From Methanocellales archaeon (lineage in GTDB: Archaea > Halobacteriota > UBA148 > JAUWXC01), in the NCBI GenBank assembly GCA_030610945.1, contig JAUWQV010000001.1, positions 124,246 through 188,245 on the forward strand: DNA of 64,000 nucleotides, written 5' to 3'. A program made the translations under genes and the position numbers. The notes beneath the pieces are model-generated. The model was not told where the DNA came from. It saw nothing but the letters and a program-made list of their open reading frames with translations, and did no database searches. Positions 18,394-56,195 of the stretch are shown here, in pieces; position 1 is the first letter of the stretch; every line of letters starts with the position of its first letter.

Positions 18394-19138
18394 TTTTTCA
18401 TCCCTGGCTACGACCAATAACCCGTTTGAGTGGGTGTATAAGTTAGAGGAGATGGGGTTTAGCGGCTGGGAAATTGTTGGTGAGGGCAGGCAGAAGCTCA
18501 CAGAGGAGATGGGCAAAAAAATCAAGGAAGTGCAGGAGGCTACAAATCTGGAATTCACGGTACACCTGCCTTTCTCTGACCTGAATCTCGCTAGTCTGAA
18601 TCAGGGGATATGGGATGAGACTATGAGGCAGATGAACGGCGCCATACGCTCGGTAGGAGATTTCACGGACCTGATGGTCGTGCATCCCGGGCACCTTTCG
18701 CCCTTGGGAGCGGAATTGCCTGACAAGGCGTGGAAGCAGAACATTGTCGGTATACAAAAACTATGCGACGTTGCGGAGGATTATAACGTCACAATATGCG
18801 TGGAGAACATGCCAGACATCGGATTTCTGTTCGGCAAGTTCCCAGAAGAGTTAGTAGGTATGGTAGAAAATGTGGGCAGGGAGAATGTTGGCATCGCCCT
18901 TGACATAGGGCATGCCAATCTTGTGGGCAAATTGGATGAGTTTTTAAATTTGAAGGCAAAACACGTCCACATACATGACAATCTTGGCAAGAGAGATGAC
19001 CATCTTCCGCTTGGGCGCGGCATGATAGATTGGAAGATGGTGATGAAAAAATTAAAAGACCACAAGGGCAGGTTTGTCATCGAGGCTAGAACCCTGGAGG
19101 AAGGAGAAGAAAGCCTGAAATACCTAAGACGGCTTTGA
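18383..19138 (+). CDS. Sugar phosphate isomerase/epimerase (xylose isomerase-like TIM barrel)
   Basis: The pattern VHLPF...VVHPG...CVEN...DIGHA...HIHDN fits AP endonuclease 2/xylose isomerase-like TIM barrels. Confidence 0.7.
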   Translation: MRISFSSLATTNNPFEWVYKLEEMGFSGWEIVGEGRQKLTEEMGKKIKEVQEATNLEFTVHLPFSDLNLASLNQGIWDETMRQMNGAIRSVGDFTDLMVVHPGHLSPLGAELPDKAWKQNIVGIQKLCDVAEDYNVTICVENMPDIGFLFGKFPEELVGMVENVGRENVGIALDIGHANLVGKLDEFLNLKAKHVHIHDNLGKRDDHLPLGRGMIDWKMVMKKLKDHKGRFVIEARTLEEGEESLKYLRRL

Positions 19139-40163: not shown

Positions 40164-41047
40164 AGACGATGGTTACGGGGTGCAACGGGTTTATCGGCAC
40201 CCATCTGGTCAGGCGATTGTTGAATGAAGGCTTTCGGGTGAGAGGATACGACCTAAAGAAATCGTCGATCACTGACCCCAATTTTGAATTTATCCAGGGC
40301 GACATACTTGATATGGAAAAACTACGCGAAAGCATGGATGGGTGCGAAAGCGTGTTTCACCTCGCAGCCCAGACCACCGTCCCAGAATCAACTTCGGACC
40401 CATACCACGACTTCAAGACAAATGCAGAGGGCACCTTCAACGTGCTTCTTGCAGCAAAAGAATTAGGCGCTAAAGTCATCTATACGTCCACCTCCACGGT
40501 GTACGGGCTTGCAGACACGCCAACCAACGAATCGCACCCGCTAAAGCCAATCTCGTTCTATGGCGCATCCAAGGCGGCAGGCGACCTGTACTGCTTTGCA
40601 TTTCACCATACCTTTGAGGCGGATACGGTCATACTCAGATTGTACAATGTATATGGTCCGGGCAACGGCAAGGGCGTGATGTATGACTTGTTCAAGAAGC
40701 TGGAGCGTGATTCCTCGCACTTAGAGGTTATCGGAACCGGACTGCAGAGGAAGGATTACGTCTATATCGATGATGTAATCGATGCATTTCTAATCACCTA
40801 TGAAAAAGGAGCATCTGGCGAGGCGTATAACGTCGGCAGCGGCGTCTCCGTGACCGTAAACGAAATTGTGAAAAATATCCTTGATATTTTGCAATTGAAC
40901 CCAGAGATCACGTATACCGGTCAATCCTGGGAGGGGGATGTCGAGTCTGCCCTGGCTGATATTTCCAGGTTTAAAAGTCTGGGATGGCGCCCAAAGGTCA
41001 GCATAGAGGATGGTATTAGAAGGACGTATGAGTGGCTTAAAGATTAG
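40160..41047 (+). CDS. NAD-dependent epimerase/dehydratase (UDP-glucose 4-epimerase-like)
   Basis: VTGCNGFIGTHL Rossmann motif and YGASK catalytic YxxxK; 295 aa. Confidence 0.85.
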   Translation: MKTMVTGCNGFIGTHLVRRLLNEGFRVRGYDLKKSSITDPNFEFIQGDILDMEKLRESMDGCESVFHLAAQTTVPESTSDPYHDFKTNAEGTFNVLLAAKELGAKVIYTSTSTVYGLADTPTNESHPLKPISFYGASKAAGDLYCFAFHHTFEADTVILRLYNVYGPGNGKGVMYDLFKKLERDSSHLEVIGTGLQRKDYVYIDDVIDAFLITYEKGASGEAYNVGSGVSVTVNEIVKNILDILQLNPEITYTGQSWEGDVESALADISRFKSLGWRPKVSIEDGIRRTYEWLKD

Positions 41048-41595
41048 CGATCTCTGCTCATTTGCTCTGCTTCCTCTAAAACCCTACCGTAAACCGTTAT
41101 GTCAATTCTAAAGCCAGAGTCAATCAATTTTTTAAGCAAAACTTTAAATTCACTAAGATCGACTATCCCCTTCTTTAAAGCCTCCAAAAGAACTCCTAAC
41201 GTTCCAGTAAAAGTAAGTCCGAGAAATTCAGCGGCAATTCTTGCTCTCTTGTCATCTAGAATAATCAAATCGGCTTTTTTCTCCATGTTGAAACCCTGCA
41301 GGTTACAACTCTCCCAGACATCCGTCTGGGAAATAGCCAAAAGCAGTGCATGTTCTTCCCCTTTATGGATGTTCAAATCGCTTAAATTTTTGTTATGTAT
41401 GTGAACCTCTTCGGTTTTTATAAATCCTCTCTTGAGAAAATCGGTGACCTCTTCAGGAAAATCTGCTTTCTTTGCTACGATCTCTTTAAAAGCTGCCCTT
41501 GGTATGTGAATTTCTCCATAAAGTAATTTAAGCAGGTCAAGCCTTTTTATCTTCGAAAGAAAAATTAATGGAGAGGCATTAGATACTACTAGCAC
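41044..41595 (-). CDS. DUF3368-family PIN-like putative toxin, carrying a 17-aa in-frame insertion
   Basis: NASPLIFLSKIKRLDLL...IP N-terminus, GEEHA...ILDDKRAR core. The 17 extra residues (ISQTDVWESCNLQGFNM) are absent from the paralog at 42132-42632. Confidence 0.65.
   Translation of the reverse strand: MLVVSNASPLIFLSKIKRLDLLKLLYGEIHIPRAAFKEIVAKKADFPEEVTDFLKRGFIKTEEVHIHNKNLSDLNIHKGEEHALLLAISQTDVWESCNLQGFNMEKKADLIILDDKRARIAAEFLGLTFTGTLGVLLEALKKGIVDLSEFKVLLKKLIDSGFRIDITVYGRVLEEAEQMSRDR
41284..41334 (-). repeat. 51-bp double-hairpin element, copy 1 (inside DUF3368 CDS)
   Basis: Minus-strand reading: ATT-TCCCAGAC-GGAT-GTCTGGGA-GA-GTTGTAACC-TGCAG-GGTTTCAAC-ATG. It shares exact 16-mer, 10-mer and 7-mer blocks in the same order with 43263-43313. 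Confidence 0.75.
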
Positions 41596-41912
41596 TTTTT
41601 AATCCTCTTCAGATCTTTTTCAAGTTCTTGCAGGTCGTAGTTTATGGTCATCCCCTTTGAGGATAAAATTTCAATCATTTCCCACAGGTTACGTTCTGCT
41701 ATCTCTGCTGCTTTCCACAGGGAGACTTTGCCTTCTTTGTATAGGTCCAATGCATGATCAACCTTGTATTCCTGCAAGGCTTTGTGAATGAGTTTTCTGA
41801 TAAAGGTTGCCTTGTCTAGGTGCTCTTTTTTTGTGAACTCTTCTATTTCTTTCACGTCCTCAGGGAAGAGGCGCGTGGATACGGTTATAGCCTTGGTCGC
41901 CATTTTTATCAC
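41589..41912 (-). CDS. UPF0175-family antitoxin
   Basis: DLYKEGKVSLWKAAEIAERNLWEMIEILSSKG is typical of UPF0175. 7-nt overlap with the DUF3368 gene. Confidence 0.65.
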   Translation of the reverse strand: MIKMATKAITVSTRLFPEDVKEIEEFTKKEHLDKATFIRKLIHKALQEYKVDHALDLYKEGKVSLWKAAEIAERNLWEMIEILSSKGMTINYDLQELEKDLKRIKKC

Positions 41913-42131
41913 GTCTGCATTTTAATTAAATGTAAACATCTTATTTAAGACTTTTGATAAGAGAGATTTGGAAAAATTCTGCAAAACATATTTTTATTCC
42001 CAAGATTCTCGCTCGTTCTGAGACTCCTCCCAGAGATCGTAAAATTTTTGGGAATTCACCATAAAAGCACGGTTAGATTGTTTCCAACAGACAAACATAG
42101 ATTAGAAGTTGAGGTTTTAGAGTAGTCAATA

Positions 42132-42632
42132 CTACCGTCCAAGTTCATGTAGGATGCCAAGTAGGACCAAGAAATTAGGATCGCCAGACTTGAACAGCTT
42201 TTTTAACATGTCCTCTGCCTCATCACTGGTTACAAGATGTTTCTTTAACCCCCATAATGGGAGATAACAAACAGAAACACACCTAAGCCCGACCTTTGAT
42301 GCTGTGCTAATTGCGAGTTTATCGTCCAATAAAACCTCTGGTAAATCCAACTGAAGTGCCAGCGCAATGGCTGCACACTCCCCCCTCCCCAACCGTTCCC
42401 TTCTAAGAAATGATCTAAAGTACCTCATTCCGATGTCGTTCAGCTCTTTTCTCTCGATAAACTCCTCTTGTTCCAAAAGATGTATTCGCTGAACGTGTCT
42501 TTTCGGCTTTTTATGTTCGTCAAAAACCTCGGTCGGAACATAAATTTTCGAGTATCTCTTCTTTGCGAGCGATATCAGACGTTCGTCTTTAGGCAAATCG
42601 ATGATCATAGATGCGTCGGCGGAGGCTTTCAT
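42132..42632 (-). CDS. DUF3368-family PIN-like putative toxin
   Basis: GRGECAAIALALQLDLPEVLLDDKLA core; 166 aa. Paired with the upstream UPF0175 gene. Confidence 0.6.
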   Translation of the reverse strand: MKASADASMIIDLPKDERLISLAKKRYSKIYVPTEVFDEHKKPKRHVQRIHLLEQEEFIERKELNDIGMRYFRSFLRRERLGRGECAAIALALQLDLPEVLLDDKLAISTASKVGLRCVSVCYLPLWGLKKHLVTSDEAEDMLKKLFKSGDPNFLVLLGILHELGR

Positions 42633-42634
42633 TC

Positions 42635-42952
42635 CTAAACCTCGACGTCAAACTCCTCAAGAAGTAACTTCTTTATGTTTCCGACATCTATTTTTCTGGA
42701 TACTTTTTTGCTTTCGAGAAAATCGATGAAATCCAGTAGCGGTAACTTTGCGAGCTCTGCTGCTTTCTGGATAGATACGTCTCCTTTGTTATACAACTCC
42801 AATGCCAGTTCTTTTCTTTTCTCCTCGATTCCCATCTCGAAGATTTCTCTGATAACCATTGATTTGCCCTTTCTCTCCAATTTCCCCAGCTCATCAAGCT
42901 CTACCACAAAGTTTTTGTGGACCCTAAAGCCGACATACTCGGTTTTCGCCAT
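42635..42952 (-). CDS. UPF0175-family antitoxin
   Basis: LELYNKGDVSIQKAAELAKLPLLDFIDFLESKK. Confidence 0.65.
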   Translation of the reverse strand: MAKTEYVGFRVHKNFVVELDELGKLERKGKSMVIREIFEMGIEEKRKELALELYNKGDVSIQKAAELAKLPLLDFIDFLESKKVSRKIDVGNIKKLLLEEFDVEV

Positions 42953-43016
42953 TCAAATCACATGAAAACATTGTTGTCATATAATTTAAAGCTATCGCCA
43001 AAACTGTGATCCACTT

Positions 43017-43337
43017 CTAAAACAATTTCGAAAAATCGTTGTAAACATTTTTTCTATATCCAACAAACAGGATGACTACTCGCTGATTTTCCTTATCTAC
43101 TTCATAAATTGCCCTGTAATCGCCTATCCTCAGGACACAAAAGTTAGAGTATTTTAAATGTTTGCCCTTTTCGCCTGGAAACTCTTCGAGTTCCTTAATT
43201 TTGTTTTTTATCCTCTCTCTTGTTTGCTTGTCCAGTTTTTCTAAAAATTCTTTTGCTTTTGGATGTTGAAACGCCAAAGGCGTTACAACTCTCCCAGATG
43301 TTCCATCTGGGATATGAAGGAGGACCCCGAACTTCAT
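43017..43337 (-). CDS. relE: RelE/ParE-family toxin carrying a 17-aa in-frame N-terminal insertion
   Basis: KEFLEKLDKQTRERIKNKIKELEE...LRIGDYRAIYEVDKENQRVVILFVGYRKNVY. Residues 9-25 (IPDGTSGRVVTPLAFQH) are encoded by the 51-bp element. Confidence 0.75.
   Translation of the reverse strand: MKFGVLLHIPDGTSGRVVTPLAFQHPKAKEFLEKLDKQTRERIKNKIKELEEFPGEKGKHLKYSNFCVLRIGDYRAIYEVDKENQRVVILFVGYRKNVYNDFSKLF
43263..43313 (-). repeat. 51-bp double-hairpin element, copy 2 (inside relE CDS)
   Basis: Minus-strand reading: A-TCCCAGATG-GAA-CATCTGGGA-GA-GTTGTAACGCC-TTT-GGCGTTTCAAC-AT. It is translated in a different frame from copy 1. Confidence 0.75.
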
Positions 43338-43565
43338 TTAAAGTTCCTCTAATGGAGCGAGAATTTCCGGTTTTTCTCTTGCTTCTTCACTTCTTTCTAC
43401 AAGCATCTTGTAAAACTGGCGGGTCCTTTCTCTCTCCTCATAGAGGGTTATTATGGTTTTGATGGCGTCACTTCTGCTTTTAAATTTGCCTTCGGCAACC
43501 CACCGATCTATTTCCTTAACGGTTTCATCCGGAACTCTTAATTGGACCTGGACCATTGTCCTCAC
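43338..43565 (-). CDS. Ribbon-helix-helix (CopG-type) antitoxin
   Basis: VQLRVPDETVKEIDRWVAEGKFKSRSDAIKTII is an RHH pattern. The stop abuts the relE start. Confidence 0.65.
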   Translation of the reverse strand: MRTMVQVQLRVPDETVKEIDRWVAEGKFKSRSDAIKTIITLYEERERTRQFYKMLVERSEEAREKPEILAPLEEL

Positions 43566-43566
43566 C

Positions 43567-43586
43567 TGTAAACATTATTGTTTACA
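43567..43586. promoter_or_regulatory. Perfect inverted repeat TGTAAACA-TTAT-TGTTTACA, candidate operator of the RHH-relE module
   Basis: 8-4-8 palindrome starting 2 nt upstream of the RHH antitoxin start codon. Confidence 0.4.
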
Positions 43587-43679
43587 AATTACTTAAATAC
43601 TTCGTCCCCCCTTTTGTTTTACTTTTATAATCGTAAAGTATTTAAATACGTAGTACTATTTAAAAAAGTGGGAGGAATA

Positions 43680-43916
43680 ATGGAGACAGCAAAGGTGAGC
43701 ACTAAATATCAGATAGTCGTGCCAAAAAAGGTTAGAGACATGATGGGCATAGAAAAAGAGGACATTTTGCTCTTTAAGATAGAGGATAGTGGGGTTAAAC
43801 TGGAAAAGTTTGATGAACTGCTGAAAAAGCATGTTGGAACGGTTAAACTGAAGAAGGGGTTCAAGGTTCTGAGAAGAGAGTTCAATGAAGAAATGGCACA
43901 AGAGGCGGTAAAGTGA
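43680..43916 (+). CDS. vapB: AbrB/SpoVT-family antitoxin VapB
   Basis: KVSTKYQIVVPKKVRDMMGI. GGAGGA lies 4 nt upstream of the ATG at 43680. Confidence 0.8.
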   Translation: METAKVSTKYQIVVPKKVRDMMGIEKEDILLFKIEDSGVKLEKFDELLKKHVGTVKLKKGFKVLRREFNEEMAQEAVK

Positions 43917-44311
43917 AGGTCTTGATAGACACATCAATTTTCATGTCTATATTTGCCAGGGATGTACATACTGCTAAGTCGGTCAAGCTCTTCAAAGATG
44001 TCCTTGAGAAACACGAAGGCTTTTTCTGCAGCATGACCATAAACGAGTTGATATGGGTGTTAAAAAAGTCAGATTATGATGCCAAGTTTATCCGTGAAAA
44101 GATAGAGTTCATCTTCTCTTCTCCACTAAAATTTCTCGCTACCGATGAAGGCATTTTCATTGTCTCGGTTGAACAAATGGAAAAATACGGACTATCATAC
44201 GGCGATAGTCAGATAATTACTCAAGCAATCGTTAACGGTCTAGACGGCATAGCCAGCTTTGACAAGGATTTTGATATGGTTAAAGAGATGCCCAGAATTG
44301 AGACGATTTAG
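43913..44311 (+). CDS. vapC: PIN-domain toxin VapC
   Basis: VLIDTSIF, YGDSQIITQA and SFDKDFD acidic motifs. 4-nt overlap with vapB. Confidence 0.8.
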   Translation: MKVLIDTSIFMSIFARDVHTAKSVKLFKDVLEKHEGFFCSMTINELIWVLKKSDYDAKFIREKIEFIFSSPLKFLATDEGIFIVSVEQMEKYGLSYGDSQIITQAIVNGLDGIASFDKDFDMVKEMPRIETI

Positions 44312-44387
44312 TCGCAAATTCATATCGTTAACTTTTGTAGGTTATCGCTTAAACGAAGTATATACAATCGTTCATAAAATGTAGACT

Positions 44388-44603
44388 TTAAATTTTTTTA
44401 TCAAGTAATTCTAACAATTGCCACGCTCGTATTATTTTTATATGTTCAAATTCTTCCAGATCGAGGAGATGCCTATCACCGGAGATGATATAATCGGCAT
44501 CTGCTTCGATAGCACCAGCTTCTGCTCTTCTTATTATTTCAGATTCATTACCATCCCAAAAAGTCGCAGAAATCAGAACATTAGTATCGAGGATGGTCTT
44601 CAT
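44388..44603 (-). pseudogene. Internally deleted PIN-domain toxin (71 aa)
   Basis: The N-terminal ILDTNVLISA is joined almost directly to the C-terminal ADYIISGDRHLLDL. About 60 residues of a normal ~135-aa PIN toxin appear to be missing. Confidence 0.5.
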
Positions 44604-44898: not shown

Positions 44899-44936
44899 TT
44901 ATTCTTAAGACTTATGGATGAAAAACAGTAATATAT

Positions 44937-45158
44937 TCACAGCTCGCCAAGCAAATCTTCAACAGAAGTAATTTCCCTAACCCGACCTACTTTAATATCC
45001 CGGTCGCTTTTACGGAGTGCTTCCATCGTTTTCGGATTAGTGATAATTTCAACTGAATCAATGAGTGCTTCGATGTCTTCTCGCGTAGCCATCTTCTCTT
45101 CCATCCTCTTTAGCTCTTGATATAATATATGATATATATCTTCAATTGTAACGGTCAT
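44937..45158 (-). CDS. Putative antitoxin (RelB/Phd-like), orphan copy
   Basis: 73 aa. Paralog of 46024-46239, with DNA similarity extending into the upstream region. No toxin gene follows it. Confidence 0.45.
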   Translation of the reverse strand: MTVTIEDIYHILYQELKRMEEKMATREDIEALIDSVEIITNPKTMEALRKSDRDIKVGRVREITSVEDLLGEL

Positions 45159-45863: not shown

Positions 45864-46027
45864 CGCAGTAACTCACCGGAAAGCCAGCCACCTTTACATG
45901 CAATGGGTCTTTCTGTAAACCGTTTGATTTTCTTGTCAAGTTCCTCAAGGGCTTTCTTATTCTTTCTGATGATTTTGAGGGACTCAAGAAAAGTATCTGT
46001 TCGCTTGACTGTCCAAGTCATGTTCAC
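45839..46027 (-). pseudogene. 3'-truncated RelE/ParE-like toxin (62 aa)
   Basis: The RelE-like N-terminal half (FLESLKIIRKNKKALEELDKKIKRFTERP...LSGEL) is present, but the C-terminal beta-sheet (RxGDYR...) is missing. The last 25 nt overlap the convergent YgiT gene. Confidence 0.45.
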
Positions 46028-46239
46028 AGCTCGTCAAGCAAATCTTTAACAGAAGTAACTTCCCTAACCCGACCTGCTTTAACATCCCGGTCGCTTTTAC
46101 GGAGTGCTTCCATCGTTTTTGGATTGCTAAGAATTTCAACTGAGTCAATGAGTGCTTCGATGTCTTCTCGCGTAACCATCTTCTCTTCCATCCTCTTTAG
46201 CCCTTGGTATACGTCTTCAATTGTAACTAAACCAGTCAT
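46024..46239 (-). CDS. Putative antitoxin (RelB/Phd-like)
   Basis: 71 aa. 4-nt overlap with the truncated RelE-like ORF. Paralog of 44937-45158. Confidence 0.5.
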   Translation of the reverse strand: MTGLVTIEDVYQGLKRMEEKMVTREDIEALIDSVEILSNPKTMEALRKSDRDVKAGRVREVTSVKDLLDEL

Positions 46240-46414: not shown

Positions 46415-46436
46415 TAGCCATATTTTCAGCTTATTT

Positions 46437-47645
46437 TCACTCTTCGCGTCTGAGTACCAGATATGCGACTGCAAGCAATCCTGCGATTGCGAACACAGCC
46501 TCAAAGCCCGGCGTCGGTGGTGTTACCGTTGGTGTTACCGTTGGTGTTACTGTTGGTGTCACGGTCGGCGTTACCGTGGGCGTCACGGTTGGTGTTGCTG
46601 TTGGTGTTGATGTCGGAGTCGGCGTTGCTCGTGCATATAATCGGTCCACTGTTATCGATGCTGTTGTCGAATGCCCCGCTTCATCGGTTGCCACGACCGT
46701 GAAGACATTGTTTCCAAATGATAATGACACGACTTGACTATAGGGTGTTGCTGGTGTTATTGATACCCCATTAAATGTAAGTGTGGAAAGGTTGGTTTCA
46801 GTCACAGTTCCAGAGATCGTCGTTGTGCTATGATATGTGCGTGTGCCTTCTGAACTCGAGACGGTTACTGTTGGTGCTGTGTTGTCCACAGTAACGGTAA
46901 CTGTGTAGTTAGTCCCTGTATTCCCTGCATTATCCGTTGCATTTACCCCAAGAGCATATGTTCCTGCTACACTGGGAACTGTGTAATCTCCTTCCCAGCC
47001 TCCGTCGGTGGCTGTTCCGCTGGTCATTTCCAGAGCAGTTCCGTTCACGTCCACTGACGCTGTGCCGTTTGCATCTGTAACGTTCACAATTATATGAATT
47101 GGAGCTCCACCTTGAACTATCGAGTCGTTTATGGTCACGAGACTTACCACCGGTGCTGTGTTTTCGATTACGAGCACATTAAATGATTTAGGGGAGATTG
47201 CAGTCGTGTTATCAGTCGCGTACACGGTCCAGGTGTAAGTGGTGTTGATGGTATGCGTTTTGGCTGTCGCATTAAATCCAAAAGCTACTATGTCTGTGGG
47301 GTTAAAAACTTCTGGGCTAAAAGTCCATGAAAGATTGGTCGTATCGTTACTGAAGTCCGTAGTGATATTACACCAGTCCGTTCCACTGTCGAACGTAAAT
47401 CCCGATATATTATAGCTGATGTTTACCTCAGTTATGTATTCCGCAGCACTGCCACCGTTTAACACCGTGATGTTGAACGTTTCAGATACCCCGCCTTTCA
47501 CGTCAAGATCGCTGCCCGTCGTGGTGTTGGTCACTGTGATGTCAACGGCATTCACAGGCATCACGAACACAGCAAAAACTAAAAGCACCAGCACTGCCGT
47601 CAATACTATGGTAGGAGGCTTCCTATTTGTATTACCTATCTTCAT
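46437..47645 (-). CDS. Secreted surface glycoprotein-like protein with PGF-CTERM archaeosortase sorting signal
   Basis: Signal peptide (VLLVFAVFVMPVNA), many NxT/S sequons, a (TPTV)n linker, then PGFEAVFAIAGLLAVAYLVLRREE (PGF motif + TM + basic tail). Confidence 0.8.
   Translation of the reverse strand: MKIGNTNRKPPTIVLTAVLVLLVFAVFVMPVNAVDITVTNTTTGSDLDVKGGVSETFNITVLNGGSAAEYITEVNISYNISGFTFDSGTDWCNITTDFSNDTTNLSWTFSPEVFNPTDIVAFGFNATAKTHTINTTYTWTVYATDNTTAISPKSFNVLVIENTAPVVSLVTINDSIVQGGAPIHIIVNVTDANGTASVDVNGTALEMTSGTATDGGWEGDYTVPSVAGTYALGVNATDNAGNTGTNYTVTVTVDNTAPTVTVSSSEGTRTYHSTTTISGTVTETNLSTLTFNGVSITPATPYSQVVSLSFGNNVFTVVATDEAGHSTTASITVDRLYARATPTPTSTPTATPTVTPTVTPTVTPTVTPTVTPTVTPPTPGFEAVFAIAGLLAVAYLVLRREE
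46515..46625 (-). repeat. Coding 12-bp tandem repeat (GGTGTTACCGTT-like), Thr-Pro-Thr-Val linker
   Basis: Encodes TPTPTSTPTATPTVTPTVTPTVTPTVTPTVTPTVTPP. Confidence 0.8.
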
Positions 47646-47829: not shown

Positions 47830-47853
47830 TTATTTTAGTTGTTTACGTTCCTT

Positions 47854-49920
47854 TCACTCTTCGCGTCTGAGTACCAGATATGCGACTGCAAGCAATCCTG
47901 CGATTGCGAACACAGCCTCAAAGCCCGGCGTCGGTGGTGTTACCGTTGGTGTTACCGTTGGTGTTACCGTTGGTGTTACTGTTGGTGTTACTGTTGGTGT
48001 TGGTATTGGTGCCGATGCAAGGACGTTGAAGGTTGCTGTCTCCTTCGTACCGTCGGCGTTGACCTCAACATCCCATTTGCCCAGGGTGTAGTCAGTCGTG
48101 TCGAACTCGGCTGTCACTGCACCATCTGCGACCTTCGTGGTCACGATAGCAAGCGAGGCATCTGGCCCTGTCAGCGTGACAGTTGCGAGTTTGCCGTCCT
48201 TCCTGTTCGTCGTGGCTTCGATTATCAGCGTAGCACCTGCTCCTACATCAGCGGTGGGTGATATTGTCACCTTGTCGTCCTCGACCTTGAACTCCGTGGT
48301 CGCGGTCATGTCGTCGCTACCGGGCATCTCAGTCGTGTAGTAGTTGAACGTGTCCTTGATTTGTGACAGTGTCAGGCCCGAGTAGGTGCCGGAGTAAGAT
48401 GCTTTAACATCTGCAAGAGCTGCATTTCTGCCTGGATGTATGACGAACACGGTGTATGTGCCCTTGGTCAACATAGTTGAGAATGGTTTCTTCGTGAACG
48501 TCCAGTCATCTGAGTTGACAGAGACCGAGCCATTCCACGAACAAGCACCATTGTCGTTCCTGAATGCCAGCATGTAGATAGTTGTGGCACCATTCGCGAC
48601 ACCTGTAACCTCCATGGTCGTGGTGTCGGTCTTGGCCATAACGTCAGGTGCGGTCACGGCTACGTCGCCTTCTATCAGCAGTATCGATGTGGCTGCATCT
48701 GCTGATACACCTGTATTAGACGTCAGGTTACCATTGTGTGCATATATGTCAACTCTGTAGGTGCCTGGCAGCATGGTTGCCGTGTCCCACTTGTACTCGT
48801 ACACGTCGGAACTGTCCTTGGCGTCGTATGCCCAGATCTTGTAGGCATCAGCACTGTCTTTGATTGTGACGGTTGCACCCTCATAGCCCGTCACGGTACC
48901 GGTGATTGTCACCTTTGTGCCGATTGTGGCTATTGTCGGTGCGTCTACAGATACCACAGCATCGGATACGGAAACATCAACTGTTGCGGTTTTTGTAGTT
49001 GTAGTGTCCCTTACCTTCACGGTGTACGTGCCTGTGTCGTTGAATGTCATCGTCAACTTGAACGTGCTGTCAGATTTTATCGTGATGGTCGCGTTGTTGT
49101 TATCGCCTGCCGATAGTGCTGTGCCAATGTCGTTAAAGCTGAGTACGATGGTGTTCTTGTCCACAGGTGTCGTGGTTACATAAACGGTGTCACCTGCAGG
49201 TGCAGTGATTGTGAGCGTCGTTTTCTCACCCTTGACCACTGAGGTCTTGCTTGCACTTATCGCTATGTCTGCACTCTCTATCGCCAGCGATAAGGTGTTG
49301 GACTTCATGTCCAATCCCTCTGCTGCACTGGTGTTGGTCTTTACCTGCACCGTGTACGTGCCTGCCTTGAACCCGGTTGTGTTTAAACAGAAGGTCTTGA
49401 TGAGTGACATCGTTACATTCTTCAGAGCCTGAGTGTCTCCATCAGTCCCCAGTATGTTGCCATCTGGGTCCTTGACCTCTATGTTGGCTGCGTCGCCGTT
49501 AGGTATGTTCGTACTTACATCAAGTGTGAGATTCGTGCCCGCTGTCGTGCTGGATACCGAGGTGGTGCCGTACTTTAGATCAATGGTTAGAATCGGAGCA
49601 CTTACGGACATATCCGCAGCTCCAGTAGCATTACCACTGCAGTTGTATGTACCTGCCGAAAGTATGCTGGAGTCGTAATCAGCGCTGGTTAGACTGAAAG
49701 TTAACCCCTTTATCGAGTCTGGAGTTAACCCTATGATTGTAGTCGCAGATTCATTGTTGTCAAAGTTTAATTGCTGGCCAATTAGCACATTGTTGGTGCC
49801 GCCAACGGTTATGTCGTTTTTGTCTCCGCCTGCTGCCGCACTCACTGGCGTCACAAACGCTCCAAAGAATGTCAGAATCATTAGTGTCGCTAGAAATGTA
49901 GCTGTAATTTTGTTCTTCAT
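47854..49920 (-). CDS. Large secreted surface (S-layer-like) protein with PGF-CTERM sorting signal
   Basis: Signal peptide (MILTFFGAFVTPVSA) and a Thr/Val-rich body with repeated beta-domain character. The (TPTV)n linker and PGF-CTERM tail match those of the neighbouring gene. AAGGAGGT lies upstream of the ATG. Confidence 0.8.
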   Translation of the reverse strand: MKNKITATFLATLMILTFFGAFVTPVSAAAGGDKNDITVGGTNNVLIGQQLNFDNNESATTIIGLTPDSIKGLTFSLTSADYDSSILSAGTYNCSGNATGAADMSVSAPILTIDLKYGTTSVSSTTAGTNLTLDVSTNIPNGDAANIEVKDPDGNILGTDGDTQALKNVTMSLIKTFCLNTTGFKAGTYTVQVKTNTSAAEGLDMKSNTLSLAIESADIAISASKTSVVKGEKTTLTITAPAGDTVYVTTTPVDKNTIVLSFNDIGTALSAGDNNNATITIKSDSTFKLTMTFNDTGTYTVKVRDTTTTKTATVDVSVSDAVVSVDAPTIATIGTKVTITGTVTGYEGATVTIKDSADAYKIWAYDAKDSSDVYEYKWDTATMLPGTYRVDIYAHNGNLTSNTGVSADAATSILLIEGDVAVTAPDVMAKTDTTTMEVTGVANGATTIYMLAFRNDNGACSWNGSVSVNSDDWTFTKKPFSTMLTKGTYTVFVIHPGRNAALADVKASYSGTYSGLTLSQIKDTFNYYTTEMPGSDDMTATTEFKVEDDKVTISPTADVGAGATLIIEATTNRKDGKLATVTLTGPDASLAIVTTKVADGAVTAEFDTTDYTLGKWDVEVNADGTKETATFNVLASAPIPTPTVTPTVTPTVTPTVTPTVTPPTPGFEAVFAIAGLLAVAYLVLRREE
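47932..48012 (-). repeat. Coding 12-bp tandem repeat, Thr-Pro-Thr-Val linker
   Basis: Encodes PIPTPTVTPTVTPTVTPTVTPTVTPP. Confidence 0.8.
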
Positions 49921-52488: not shown

Positions 52489-53190
52489 TTACAATTTCTC
52501 CGCTATCTTTTCAAGAAGTTCAACCGCTCGATTTTGGCCCTTCACCAGTGAATCCTGGCCCACTATCATTTTATCTTGACCTTTTACCAGTGAATTCTGC
52601 CCTTCTATTAATGACGTCTGACCCTCTGTTAATGAATCCAGACTTTGTATCATTTTATCTTGGCCCTTGACCAGTGAATCTTGACCTTCTATTATTTTAT
52701 CTTGCCCTTCTGTTAATGAATCCAGACTTTGTATCATTTTATCTTGGCCCTTGACCAACACATCTTGACCCTCCGTCAACGAATCCAGACTTTGTATCAT
52801 TTTATCTTGGCCTTCTGATAGGGCTTCTGTGTTCCTCTCGATCCCCTGAATCGATTTAACCCCAACATCGAGTTTTCTTCCAATATCGCTCAATTCGTCT
52901 GTAGGTGCCTTGAAAAATACTGAGGGCAAGTCCACTTTGTAGGATATTTCTTCCTGATTTACTTCATCTATTGCGGCTCCAACATTCGCACATTTATCCC
53001 TAAGTTCCTTTATTAGATTTTTAACTGAAGGGGCTGCCCCACCGCAGACAATCTTTACGGTGCCGTCAATATCGTTATAAACCATACCTCTGATGTTAAG
53101 GCTTTTAGCAATATTTTCAACCAGATTCCTGAATCCTATATCTTGAACCCTGCCTTTTATCTGGATGTTGTAGTTTTTGTAGACTTGCAT
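52489..53190 (-). CDS. Acylphosphatase-like domain protein with a C-terminal array of about 14 heptad repeats (LxxGQDx)
   Basis: The N-terminus (IKGRVQDIGFRNLVENIAKSLNIRGMVYNDIDGTVKIVCGG) has the acylphosphatase-like VQGVGFR pattern. The C-terminus is MIQSLDS/LTEGQDx/LVKGQDK repeated. Confidence 0.6.
   Translation of the reverse strand: MQVYKNYNIQIKGRVQDIGFRNLVENIAKSLNIRGMVYNDIDGTVKIVCGGAAPSVKNLIKELRDKCANVGAAIDEVNQEEISYKVDLPSVFFKAPTDELSDIGRKLDVGVKSIQGIERNTEALSEGQDKMIQSLDSLTEGQDVLVKGQDKMIQSLDSLTEGQDKIIEGQDSLVKGQDKMIQSLDSLTEGQTSLIEGQNSLVKGQDKMIVGQDSLVKGQNRAVELLEKIAEKL
52524..52818 (-). repeat. Coding 21-bp (heptad) tandem repeat array with higher-order 63/84-bp units
   Basis: GAATCCAGACTTTGTATCATTTTATCTTGGCC recurs three times on the plus strand. 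Translates to the LxxGQDx heptads. Confidence 0.75.
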
Positions 53191-54384: not shown

Positions 54385-54560
54385 GTGCTGAGGTGACATC
54401 CTCCCATGATTGAAATCATGGGCATCGGTTCTTGATTTATGAAGGAACGACATTGGTGCTCCTCCATATCAACGGGCCTGCCACAGACCCAATACTCCTT
54501 GAGATGTTGTTCTCTCGGAGATACCTTTTCAGGATGTTCAACGCTCCGTTCACGTCTGCG
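54385..54560 (-). ncRNA. Candidate TnpB-associated omega/reRNA region (3' end of tnpB plus right-end hairpin)
   Basis: Inferred by analogy with characterised IS200/IS605 TnpB systems. Only the hairpin is directly seen; extent unverified. Confidence 0.25.
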
Positions 54561-55636
54561 TTCATCTCGTTACCGCATTTGCACCGATAAAGACCCCTGT
54601 GCTTCCTGTTTGATTTCCTGACCAAACCGCACACAGAACAGGTCTTGCTCGTATCTCGCTCGCTGACTTTAACGAATCGTATGCCAGATAGCTTGGCTTT
54701 GTACTCTATCTGGATCAGGAGCTTGGCAAATCCCCACGAATGTAGCTTCTGGTTACCTCTTTTTCCCCAATTTTTATCCTTTCGTATGTTCTTTATATCA
54801 CCCACGACTATCGTTCCTATCTTGTTTCTCTCTGCTTGTTCTATCACCTTTTTTGTGGCCGTATGGATTATTTGGCTGATTTGCGTCTTTTTCCTCCGAT
54901 GCATTCTGGTTACGCTCTTACATCCCTTTTTGTCATGCTGCTCCATCGTCTTGCTCTGGACTTTGGCCGTCTCTTTGTTGAAGTAATGCTGAACCGCCAG
55001 TGCTTGTCCGCCCGAGTAAATCTTTGATTGACCGTTTGTATCAACTGTTGCCATCAAATTGATTATTCCAACATCAACAGCCATTATGTCGGGATATTCT
55101 TTCAATCTCCTCTCTGGGATTTCGTAAACAATATGAGCCATCCACTTGCCGTTTTGATATAGCACATTGCACATCTTGGGCATGCCTTTGATGTCCCTCC
55201 ACATCTTGATTTCAAAGGTAAGCTTATCAATGCCATTCTCTTTTTTGAATTTCCTTGACATTGAGAGGGCGATTTCACCATCAGATATTGAGAACTGCTG
55301 ATAAAACGTCAGCGGGCTTAACCTATCCTTCTTGCGAAACATCGGAGGTCTCGCATCCTCGTCGGCCTTTCGCAATTTGAACCACGAAACGTAGTTATCC
55401 TGTAGGTTTTTTACGACCGCTTGTGCTGTCTGGGATGGCAATAACTTGTACCAGTGATTGTCTTTCAAGGTCTTCTTTTGGTCGTACCAGCTCGGTATCT
55501 TGCCCGTTTTATCCCACTGCTCCCTTCTCATCCAGTTGTCAGTATTGTAGAGCTTGGTCGCATAGAAGGCAAGCTTCTTGAGACACTCTTCCTGCTCTAG
55601 CGTTGAATTCAGTCGGTATTTTACACATAGCTTCAT
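54437..55636 (-). CDS. tnpB: TnpB (OrfB) RNA-guided endonuclease-type transposase accessory protein
   Basis: 400 aa from MKLCVKYRLN. RuvC-like motifs (AVDVGI..., the E and D regions) and the zinc finger CSVCG...CKCG. Confidence 0.85.
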   Translation of the reverse strand: MKLCVKYRLNSTLEQEECLKKLAFYATKLYNTDNWMRREQWDKTGKIPSWYDQKKTLKDNHWYKLLPSQTAQAVVKNLQDNYVSWFKLRKADEDARPPMFRKKDRLSPLTFYQQFSISDGEIALSMSRKFKKENGIDKLTFEIKMWRDIKGMPKMCNVLYQNGKWMAHIVYEIPERRLKEYPDIMAVDVGIINLMATVDTNGQSKIYSGGQALAVQHYFNKETAKVQSKTMEQHDKKGCKSVTRMHRRKKTQISQIIHTATKKVIEQAERNKIGTIVVGDIKNIRKDKNWGKRGNQKLHSWGFAKLLIQIEYKAKLSGIRFVKVSERDTSKTCSVCGLVRKSNRKHRGLYRCKCGNEMNADVNGALNILKRYLRENNISRSIGSVAGPLIWRSTNVVPS

Positions 55637-56046
55637 GTTCGTACCTTTTGAGATTCGATATATCTCTGAATCACGTCTTTTGTCACGTCGCCCATCGTCC
55701 CGCAGTAGTAGCTCGGATTCCAGAGATGCCCTCTCCACATTTGGTTTTTCACAACAGGAAATCTCTCAAACGTGAACTTCGCAGTAATGCCTTTAAATAT
55801 CTTCACTATTTGAGATGGTGAAAACTTTGGATGTGCTGTTATGAACAAGTGGACATGGTCTGGCATTACCTCTTGCTCCCTCAGTAAGATGCCTTTATCC
55901 TCGGCGATTTGTTCGTGTAATTGCATCAAATACTCCTTCACCTCTCCCGTCAATACCTTCCTTCGGTACTTTGTCGACCACACCATATGATAGTTGATAT
56001 TATACACACAACCCCTTGCACTTACCCAGTGTTCTTGTTTTGCCAT
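55633..56046 (-). CDS. tnpA: IS200/IS605 TnpA (Y1 HUH transposase)
   Basis: HUH motif (DHVHLFI), YHMVWSTKYRRKVL, and a C-terminal catalytic Tyr region (YIESQ). Confidence 0.85.
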   Translation of the reverse strand: MAKQEHWVSARGCVYNINYHMVWSTKYRRKVLTGEVKEYLMQLHEQIAEDKGILLREQEVMPDHVHLFITAHPKFSPSQIVKIFKGITAKFTFERFPVVKNQMWRGHLWNPSYYCGTMGDVTKDVIQRYIESQKVRT

Positions 56047-56195
56047 CAAGACACATATGGTTACCATATGCCATATACTTTACGGGCTGTATCCCACGAC
56101 TGAAGTCGTAGGGATTAGCCCTGATTTTTTCCTAACTGAAAGTGCGTTAATAACCAATGACTTAAGATTGCATGAGATTGTAAAAGACAGTCGAC

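Follow-up and report, generated by a model that had tools for sequence, protein, structure and literature searches.

Very small double-hairpin insertions in toxin, Elp3 and tRNA genes of methanogen-related archaea, probably a low-copy family of mobile elements

The window analysed here is the whole 64,000-nt stretch (64 kb) of contig JAUWQV010000001.1 from the Methanocellales archaeon assembly GCA_030610945.1. Its gene content is archaeal: among the products are a CCA-adding enzyme of archaeal type, an anaerobic ribonucleotide reductase and a protein that carries a PGF-CTERM sorting signal. A dense cluster at 41044-44603 holds at least five type II toxin-antitoxin pairs (UPF0175/DUF3368 twice, RHH/ParE and AbrB-MazE-like/PIN, plus another truncated PIN-like open reading frame (ORF)). 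Two toxin genes of this cluster, coding for a DUF3368 protein and a ParE/RelE-family protein, each contain one copy of a short element made of two adjacent hairpins (c1 and c2; Table 1); the antitoxin genes of the cluster are without it. An earlier note on this DNA had described the pair, as a double hairpin inserted in frame in the DUF3368 gene and recurring in an unrelated toxin gene. Pattern matches, folds and shuffles all agree with this description of the two copies and their positions, and the recurrence in the ParE gene is a 51-nt insertion.

The pattern TCCCAGA-N(3-9)-TCTGGGAGAGTTGTAAC has exactly two matches in the window (41302-41331 and 43282-43312, minus strand), whereas the expectation from 100 shuffles is 0.00, which places the similarity of the two copies above shuffled expectation, as the note had anticipated. 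Each copy folds as two adjacent hairpins with energies of -24 (c1) and -26 (c2) kcal/mol (z = -4.9 and -6.3), and 200 shuffles yielded no fold of equal stability. c1 is found unchanged in two further independent assemblies (Logan SRR14865926 and ENA ERZ4220937) and is therefore not an assembly artefact; together, the shuffle controls and the three independent assemblies rule out chance or artefact as the origin of the copies. The translated frames differ between c1 and c2, giving the peptides ISQTDVWESCNLQGFN and IPDGTSGRVVTPLAFQH, respectively. The common feature is thus DNA rather than peptide, and protein-level homology between the two inserts was rejected.

Comparison with orthologues defines c1 as an insertion. 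Four close DUF3368 orthologues (89-96% protein identity; 167 aa where complete) lack exactly the 16 residues ISQTDVWESCNLQGFN, which occupy positions 88-103 of the window protein. The empty site reads GGCT^ATGGAG (caret, insertion point) in loci L006 and L007 (97.2% nucleotide identity) and in L008. The reading comes from CP061209.1, a 987-kb syntenic contig labelled 'Methanosarcinales archaeon' with 97.2% identity over the DUF3368 gene; the filled site in the window reads GGCT-AT-[46 nt]-AT-GGAG. These empty sites set the net insertion at 48 nt (16 aa) and correct the 51 nt and 17 aa of the earlier note, which had counted in a Met of the host gene (LLLA^MEKKADL) and had used a 166-aa paralogue as control, where the orthologue empty sites are the right comparison. 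On the plus strand, c1 reads GTTGAAACC-CTGCA-GGTTACAAC TC TCCCAGAC-ATCC-GTCTGGGA AAT. Since AT is repeated at both junctions, placement at 41285-41332 is equivalent; the target AT copy is 41285-41286. None of 56 aligned DUF3368 homologues carries the segment. Judged by this alignment, it is a lineage-specific insertion and not ancestral, as had been proposed. In an AlphaFold2 model of the protein (mean pLDDT 86.6), the insert lies between helix 78-89 and strand 110-112, which bears the conserved Asp-Asp, and pLDDT falls below 50 at residues 92-104. The model indicates a disordered surface loop, the placement that the note had wanted to look for by structure prediction.

The evidence for c2 is of the same kind. 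The syntenic ParE orthologue in L008 (GCA_030018435.1) has 89 aa rather than 106, and c2 adds residues 9-25 (IPDGTSGRVVTPLAFQH) near the N terminus, where the Pfam ParE model begins only at residue 25. The copy recurs at the orthologous site in L009, identical at 51 of 51 positions, while divergence is 7% over the surrounding 1.5 kb and about 13% in the adjacent ParE sequence (P = 0.02 to 0.0008). In L009, the ParE orthologue that carries c2 (1033-1389) also has a 23-nt internal deletion, and the resulting frameshift lengthens the ORF to 118 aa; to go by its reading frame, the toxin gene is decaying in that strain.

Table 1. Copies of the element, their host genes and the resident insertion sequence. 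Positions without a locus label refer to the window; A and B give the orientation on the host sense strand; flanks (left; right) are read in orientation B.
Feature	Position	Strand or orientation	Length	Details
c1 host gene, DUF3368 (PIN-like) toxin	41044-41595	minus	183 aa	Pfam PF11848, E = 1.4e-13
c1	41287-41334	minus	48 nt net	empty-site orthologues; covariance-model scores 70.8 and 64.5 bits; flanks CTCCAT; AGCCAAAAGC
c1 hairpin 2	41287-41309	minus		arms 41287-41295 and 41301-41309, T.T mismatch after outer 4 bp; from sequence, fold and pair counts
c1 hairpin 1	41312-41331	minus		arms 41312-41319 and 41324-41331, 4-nt loop; from sequence, fold and covariation across copies
c2 host gene, ParE/RelE-family toxin	43017-43337	minus	106 aa	Pfam PF05016 matches residues 25-99
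c2	43265-43315	minus	51 nt net	near 5' end of ParE/RelE gene; L008 empty site; covariance-model score 82 bits; flanks TTGGAT; GGAGAAAAAC
c2 target AT copy	43263-43264	minus
c2 hairpin 2	43265-43289	minus
c2 hairpin 1	43292-43312	minus
c3	L004, Elp3 site B (acetyltransferase domain)	B	51 nt	flanks GAGGAT; GTTGAGAAGG
c4	L013, Elp3 site A (radical-SAM domain, residues 191-207)	B	51 nt	flanks GA[A/G][C/G]AT; GCGCAAAAAG
c5	L009, 3' end of PGF-CTERM protein gene	A	51 nt
c6	L206/L207 (CP017966.2), 295-nt intron of tRNA-Lys(CUU)	B	64 nt
c7	L206/L207, same intron as c6	B		carries 11-nt insert
c8	L206/L207, same intron as c6	B		partial, only hairpin 2
IS200/IS605-type element	54403-56121
tnpA	55636-56067	minus		Y1_Tnp; overlaps tnpB
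tnpB	54440-55738	minus		OrfB_IS605 and Cas12f1-like TNB

The element has a core of 46-49 nt and a net insertion of 48-51 nt, and consists of two different imperfect hairpins with a 2-nt linker. Read on the coding strand of the toxin genes it is TCCCAGA-loop-TCTGGGA GA GTTGTAAC-loop-GTTTCAAC AT; we call this orientation A (beginning TCCCAGA) and its reverse orientation B (beginning GTTGAAAC). Terminal inverted repeats are absent: the ends AT+GTTGAAAC and, on the other strand, AT+N+TCCCAGA are complementary in AT alone, and each end is palindromic by itself.

Related archaea hold further copies. Covariance models revealed some of them in related archaeal loci but none in the window, in which models built from three and from four copies, scored at every position, found no third. 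The family is present in a clade of uncultured archaea related to methanogens, with metagenome-assembled genomes labelled Methanocellales or Methanosarcinales, and the copies c3-c8 lie in hosts as different as the Elp3 gene, a surface-protein gene and a tRNA intron. c3 forms an exact 17-aa gap against the solved Elp3 structure of Methanocaldococcus infernus (6IAD), between FEDV and KNDILI, and is missing in the closest Elp3 orthologue, L091 (92.8% nucleotide identity). c4 is missing in the L012 orthologue (93% amino acid identity), and its stems show compensatory flips (TCGCAGA with TCTGCGA, and GTTGTAAT with ATTTCAAC). A model of the L013 Elp3 protein (mean pLDDT 82.9) shows a low-confidence linker joining two helices at site A and a beta-hairpin loop at site B. 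c5, a diverged copy bounded by TACTTG and GTGCTCAGACGC, swaps the C-terminal tail of its host protein from ..AYLVLRREE-stop to ..AYLCRRSKI-stop. Five independent insertion sites thus have empty-site orthologues: the DUF3368 toxin, the ParE toxin, Elp3 sites B and A, and the 3' end of the PGF-CTERM gene. The three remaining copies, c6-c8, are nested and in tandem, in one orientation, within an intron at the canonical tRNA position 37/38.

Shorter remnants accompany the full copies. At Elp3 site B, L012, L013, L090, P0062 and P0063 carry an 18-nt relic that corresponds to the initial 17-18 nt of orientation B, and a 15-nt relic derived from the hairpin-1 side lies at site A in L090.

Repeats of other kinds were also noticed. 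Directly after c5 (L009:620-715), the last codons of the gene and a terminator-like hairpin (GACGCGAAGAGTAAACAAAATAG-AAGGGATGAAAATCCCTT) are present as a tandem duplicate. The window has two direct-repeat pairs, each 92% identical (44933-45124 with 46020-46211, and 46435-46594 with 47852-48011), the second of which spans the 3' ends of paralogous PGF-CTERM surface-protein genes, the family of the c5 host. In the L206 tRNA-Lys intron, positions 18558-18638 comprise three tandem 27-nt units, each with a palindrome (AAGCGTTCTATTAGAACGCTT), which look like another small palindromic repeat, unrelated to the element.

The hairpins are under selection. Across four copies, 97% of the stem cells are paired, with four pairs changed on both sides and none on one side only. 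Hairpin 1, compared in six copies, is 98% paired with three covarying pairs and has a covariation score that is never reached in 500 shuffles. In hairpin 2, an unpaired T after the outer four pairs is kept in every copy, including c5, in which the fourth pair is flipped from G-C to C-G. Hosts that share just about 79% identity in Elp3 protein have the same stem sequences, and all stems are Watson-Crick on both strands, with no G.U signature.

Coding copies are constrained in length as well. The in-gene copies measure 48, 51, 51, 51 and 51 nt, four of the five contain no stop codon in the host frame, and the consensus is open in four of its six reading frames. The tRNA-intron copies are not multiples of three, as seen in the 64-nt c6 and the 11-nt insert of c7; such a difference is to be expected from selection on translated copies. 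On the host sense strand, c1, c2 and c5 are in orientation A, whereas c3, c4 and c6-c8 are in orientation B, and the element is read in at least three different combinations of frame and orientation. The similarity is therefore at the nucleotide and not the protein level, and the notion of a nucleotide repeat that enters ORFs without breaking them, in the manner of Rickettsia palindromic elements, is borne out by the 48- and 51-nt insertions.

The same data bear on whether the element acts as RNA. A functional motif selected in transcripts, for instance a nuclease or protein-binding site that tunes toxin expression, would fit the location of two copies in toxin genes of adjacent toxin-antitoxin pairs, the stability of the hairpins as RNA and the conservation of c2 above that of its host gene. 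Against it stand the presence of both orientations on sense strands, hosts as unrelated as toxins, Elp3, a surface protein and a tRNA intron, stems that are Watson-Crick on both strands, and relics that have lost the structure yet stay in frame. No Rfam family corresponds to it: Rfam returned nothing at E <= 10 but noise far below gathering scores, and nothing in the tRNA-intron region. The structured mRNA motif that the earlier note had offered as one option is thus disfavoured by the two orientations, the different frames, the tRNA-intron copies and the short translated relics, and we consider it quite improbable.

Copies within a tRNA intron also raise the question of whether the element is itself an archaeal bulge-helix-bulge intron, spliced from mRNA with only incidental preservation of the frame. 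The L012 orthologue of the tRNA-Lys gene has an intron of about 49 nt with two adjacent hairpins, which lends this idea some appeal. The copies, taken with 18-nt flanks, nevertheless fold as two independent hairpins with no common closing helix or bulge-helix-bulge, and either orientation is met on sense strands. Each of the five in-gene copies has a length divisible by three and four lack a stop in the host frame, as would be expected under translation, the 15-18-nt relics are plainly translated, and the L012 intron is missed by the element's covariance model. Splicing of this type is a highly improbable explanation.

Introns at the canonical position differ in length among the tRNA-Lys(CUU) orthologues: 49 nt in L012 (16398-16521, minus strand, approximate), 110 nt in L205 (19476-19659) and 295 nt in L206 (18521-18890). 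The L012 intron, with hairpins CAAACTTTT..AAAAGTTTG and ATCAAAA..TTTTGAT, is like the element in size and architecture and unlike it in sequence; as a candidate family member it was rejected on the failure of the covariance model to detect it.

The junctions follow a common pattern. In orientation B, four of five sites read ..SAT, element, AT-R-N-N-S-A-R-A-A-R-S, usually with a T-run upstream. With the GTTGAAAC end first, the four sites are preceded by ..SAT (CCAT, GGAT, GGAT and [C/G]AT) and AT also follows the element. AT lies on both sides in c1, c2 and c4 and on one side in c3, which has GT on the other; c5 has no duplication, and insertion beside a target AT fits the data equally well. 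The downstream motif AT-N4-A[AG]AA is present at four of five sites compared with 1.6% of AT dinucleotides in the window (binomial P 4e-7; the motif was chosen post hoc and the value is only indicative). The left end of the element, AT^GTTGAAAC, resembles the target AT^NNNSARAA. The copies are insertions that are similar at the nucleotide level, lack terminal inverted repeats and share this junction and target pattern.

Presence and absence of the element are seamless and phylogenetically patchy on the Elp3 and ParE trees. On the Elp3 tree, ((L004,(L010,L011)),(L014,(L012,L013))), site B is full in L004, a relic in L012 and L013, and empty in L010, L011, L014 and also L091; the L012/L013 group includes relic-bearing and empty genes alike. 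In the ParE region, the filled L009 is nearer to the empty L008 (96.2% identity) than to the filled window (92.8%). Such a pattern needs repeated scarless loss, repeated insertion at one nucleotide or allele exchange between strains. Since c1 is missing in an orthologue of 97.2% DNA identity and c4 in one of 93% protein identity, both insertions are recent. This recency is hard to reconcile with a reading in which all copies are old and immobile, their patchiness arises from homologous recombination between strains and chance precise deletions, and the hairpins persist through intra-strand templated repair of palindromes. The low copy number would suit that reading; relics at both Elp3 sites in several lineages imply occupancy long ago, and single-nucleotide differences flanking c2 (CAT..CCAAAAGC versus CAC..CCGAAGGC) are compatible with a short gene-conversion tract. 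Besides the near-identical empty orthologues of c1 and c4, however, it has to accommodate identical stems in hosts with an Elp3 identity of about 79%, and nested, tandem, same-orientation copies in the intron that imply repeated insertion. We regard it as improbable.

Taken together, the element is best explained, with a probability that we put at roughly 70%, as a member of a low-copy family of very small, non-autonomous, hairpin-ended insertion elements. Its behaviour is that of a tiny mobile element, a type so far undescribed in archaea; we found no archaeal precedent in the literature, of which our coverage was incomplete. We infer that it is still mobile and that it can be excised. A trans-acting enzyme would recognise both hairpins, probably in folded single-stranded form as HUH/Y1 (IS200/IS605-type) transposases do, and would integrate the element at an AT dinucleotide in a context of T-rich sequence, AT, N4 and A-run, from which it could be removed again without a scar. 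With a standard length of 51 nt (3 x 17) and four of six frames free of stops, many hits in coding sequence would add a surface loop of 16-17 aa that the gene survives, and later in-frame deletions would shrink the loops to relics of 5-6 aa. The anatomy, with no inverted repeats, two unlike hairpins, an unpaired T and a target centred on AT, speaks for an enzyme that recognises hairpins. That this enzyme is a single-strand transposase of the HUH/Y1 class is a tentative assignment.

The window does contain an IS200/IS605-type element (Table 1), and the earlier note had suggested that a transposase such as its TnpA, 13 kb away, might mobilise the hairpins. The end hairpins of this insertion sequence (left end 56084-56121, with a bulged T; right end 54403-54422, with a perfect 9-bp stem), CCCTACGACT..AGTCGTGGG and CCCATGATT..AATCATGGG, show no sequence relation to those of the element. 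The suggestion is left unsupported, if conceivable, and the resident insertion sequence was rejected as the parent. Elsewhere in the window, a degenerate 21-nt periodic repeat (52528-52800; seven registers of an 84-nt unit, 61-75% identity) lies inside an ORF at 52489-53190 (minus strand, 233 aa) and is probably a coding repeat of seven residues.

Several observations weigh against a transposable element of this sort. Its apparent copy number is low: two in the 64-kb window, and beyond L009, which was left out of the tally since it had been fetched because of the element, the scanned loci (about 330 kb of related loci scored at every position, and about 580 kb of more distant archaeal loci scored with speed filters) gave only c4 and the intron cluster. 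For the 'C' variant, the exact core has no match in 185,579 GTDB species-representative genomes and three in JGI metagenomes, one of them a true copy; this pattern misses the 'G' variant (TCGCAGA with TCTGCGA), which was recognised after the genome and metagenome scans. Neither an autonomous partner nor a cognate enzyme was found, covariance models detected no separated hairpins in the window and about 0.9 Mb of related archaeal loci, and the sole Y1 transposase in the window belongs to an insertion sequence with unrelated end hairpins. The left and right ends of IS608-type elements are alike, whereas the two hairpins here differ, and these extend right to the ends of the element, where IS608-type guide sequences would have no space. 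The AT at the two junctions might just as well represent a 2-bp target duplication or the core of a recombinase and so indicate another enzyme class, and c5 has neither a clean AT junction nor the target pattern.

Outside the element copies, no solo hairpin 2 occurs in 91 loci. IMG/VR has no match to the exact-core pattern, and scans of it for a relaxed hairpin 2 and for the G variant gave 113 and 5 loci, all by chance and none with a second hairpin; PLSDB and phage BLAST searches returned no meaningful match. A peptide census of 12 concatenated open-frame translations against 5.8 billion proteins gave 47 candidates, of which only the window protein and P0060 had E <= 10; this census is insensitive, an exact 17-aa match being worth only 24 bits. 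The two JGI matches that were rejected as chance, L003 (1440-1468) and L005 (2215-2243), fall in one homologous sequence. That sequence resembles a tRNA in its T-arm and acceptor end (GGTCGCAGGTTCGAGCCCTGCCCGGGGAG), receives no tRNA call from ARAGORN, and could be an unusual or long-variable-arm tRNA of an unrelated organism.

The ambiguity of the AT junctions leads to a reading with a like element and another chemistry, in which double-stranded DNA or a small circle is moved by a site-selective tyrosine or serine recombinase or by a DDE-type enzyme. AT would then be a crossover core or a 2-bp target duplication, and T-run, AT and A-run would form a preferred bent target. AT stands at the junctions of most sites (both sides of c1, c2 and c4, and AT/GT in c3), the target context is roughly palindromic (T-rich upstream, A-run downstream), and the left end mimics the target in the fashion of an attachment site. 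A DDE enzyme, on the other hand, would want the terminal inverted repeats that are absent here, a double-stranded circle of 50 bp is sterically implausible, and no copy has a linked recombinase. The compensatory changes in the stems and the conserved unpaired T also fit recognition of a folded hairpin better than that of a duplex. We consider a chemistry of this kind unlikely, though a recombinase with AT as its core is the chief competing mechanism.

Returning to the hairpin-ended insertion element, its relation to known systems can be drawn from both behaviour and anatomy. In behaviour it resembles Rickettsia palindromic elements, short palindromic repeats that lie in frame within unrelated protein-coding genes and encode a peptide compatible with the fold (PMC10969869). 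The five coding insertions of 48 or 51 nt follow the same habit, but Rickettsia palindromic elements are bacterial, about 100-150 bp long and have a family-conserved peptide in one frame, whereas this element is archaeal, has a core of only 46-49 nt with two hairpins and is read in several frames. Rickettsia palindromic elements are also present in non-coding RNA genes.

In anatomy the element resembles the end-only derivatives of IS200/IS605. That family has no terminal inverted repeats and no target duplication, carries a hairpin at each end and inserts 3' of a tetra- or pentanucleotide; its end-only derivatives, known as PATEs, measure about 270 nt (PMC7290912). With PATEs and with REP/RAYT repeats our element shares the lack of inverted repeats, imperfect hairpins at both ends, a stem with an irregular T, seamless presence and absence, a conserved short insertion motif and a Y1 transposase gene in the window. 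Unlike PATEs, it is far smaller, its hairpins are unlike each other and those of the resident insertion sequence, there is no space for a guide tetranucleotide and AT lies on both sides at most sites; REPs, for their part, are defined as extragenic. Canonical prokaryotic MITEs (miniature transposable elements with inverted repeats), including those of the archaea Sulfolobus and Haloquadratum, are similarly small, non-coding, present at many sites and presumably mobilised in trans, and in-frame fusions with host ORFs are occasionally known (PMC10969869). MITEs are, however, defined by the terminal inverted repeats of a parent insertion sequence and by target duplications of fixed length; the element lacks inverted repeats and our scans found no parent. 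Bulge-helix-bulge introns are comparable as short structured insertions tolerated in tRNA genes, and some copies lie inside one, but the element has no such motif across its junctions, is independent of orientation and is translated in coding sequence.

A bolder version of the proposal holds that these insertions form a new class of minimal mobile element: two hairpins alone, about 49 nt, moving as folded single-stranded DNA with homing-like preference for a target of about 10 nt and excising without a scar. It would return again and again to given positions of conserved genes, Elp3 among them, settle in tRNA introns and act as a steady archaeal source of 16-17-residue loops. We put this forward as possible but doubtful.

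If the preferred explanation is true, selfish DNA inside protein-coding genes would extend from Rickettsia-type bacteria to archaea, in an element of about one third the size. It would also provide a natural series in which a selfish insertion turns into protein, from 51 nt through a disordered loop of 17 aa to a relic of 5-6 aa, in the universally conserved Elp3 and in toxins. The sequences found permit a direct biochemical search for the hairpin-recognising enzyme. Insertions of this kind inflate the apparent protein novelty of metagenome-assembled genomes and can mislead the alignment of orthologues.

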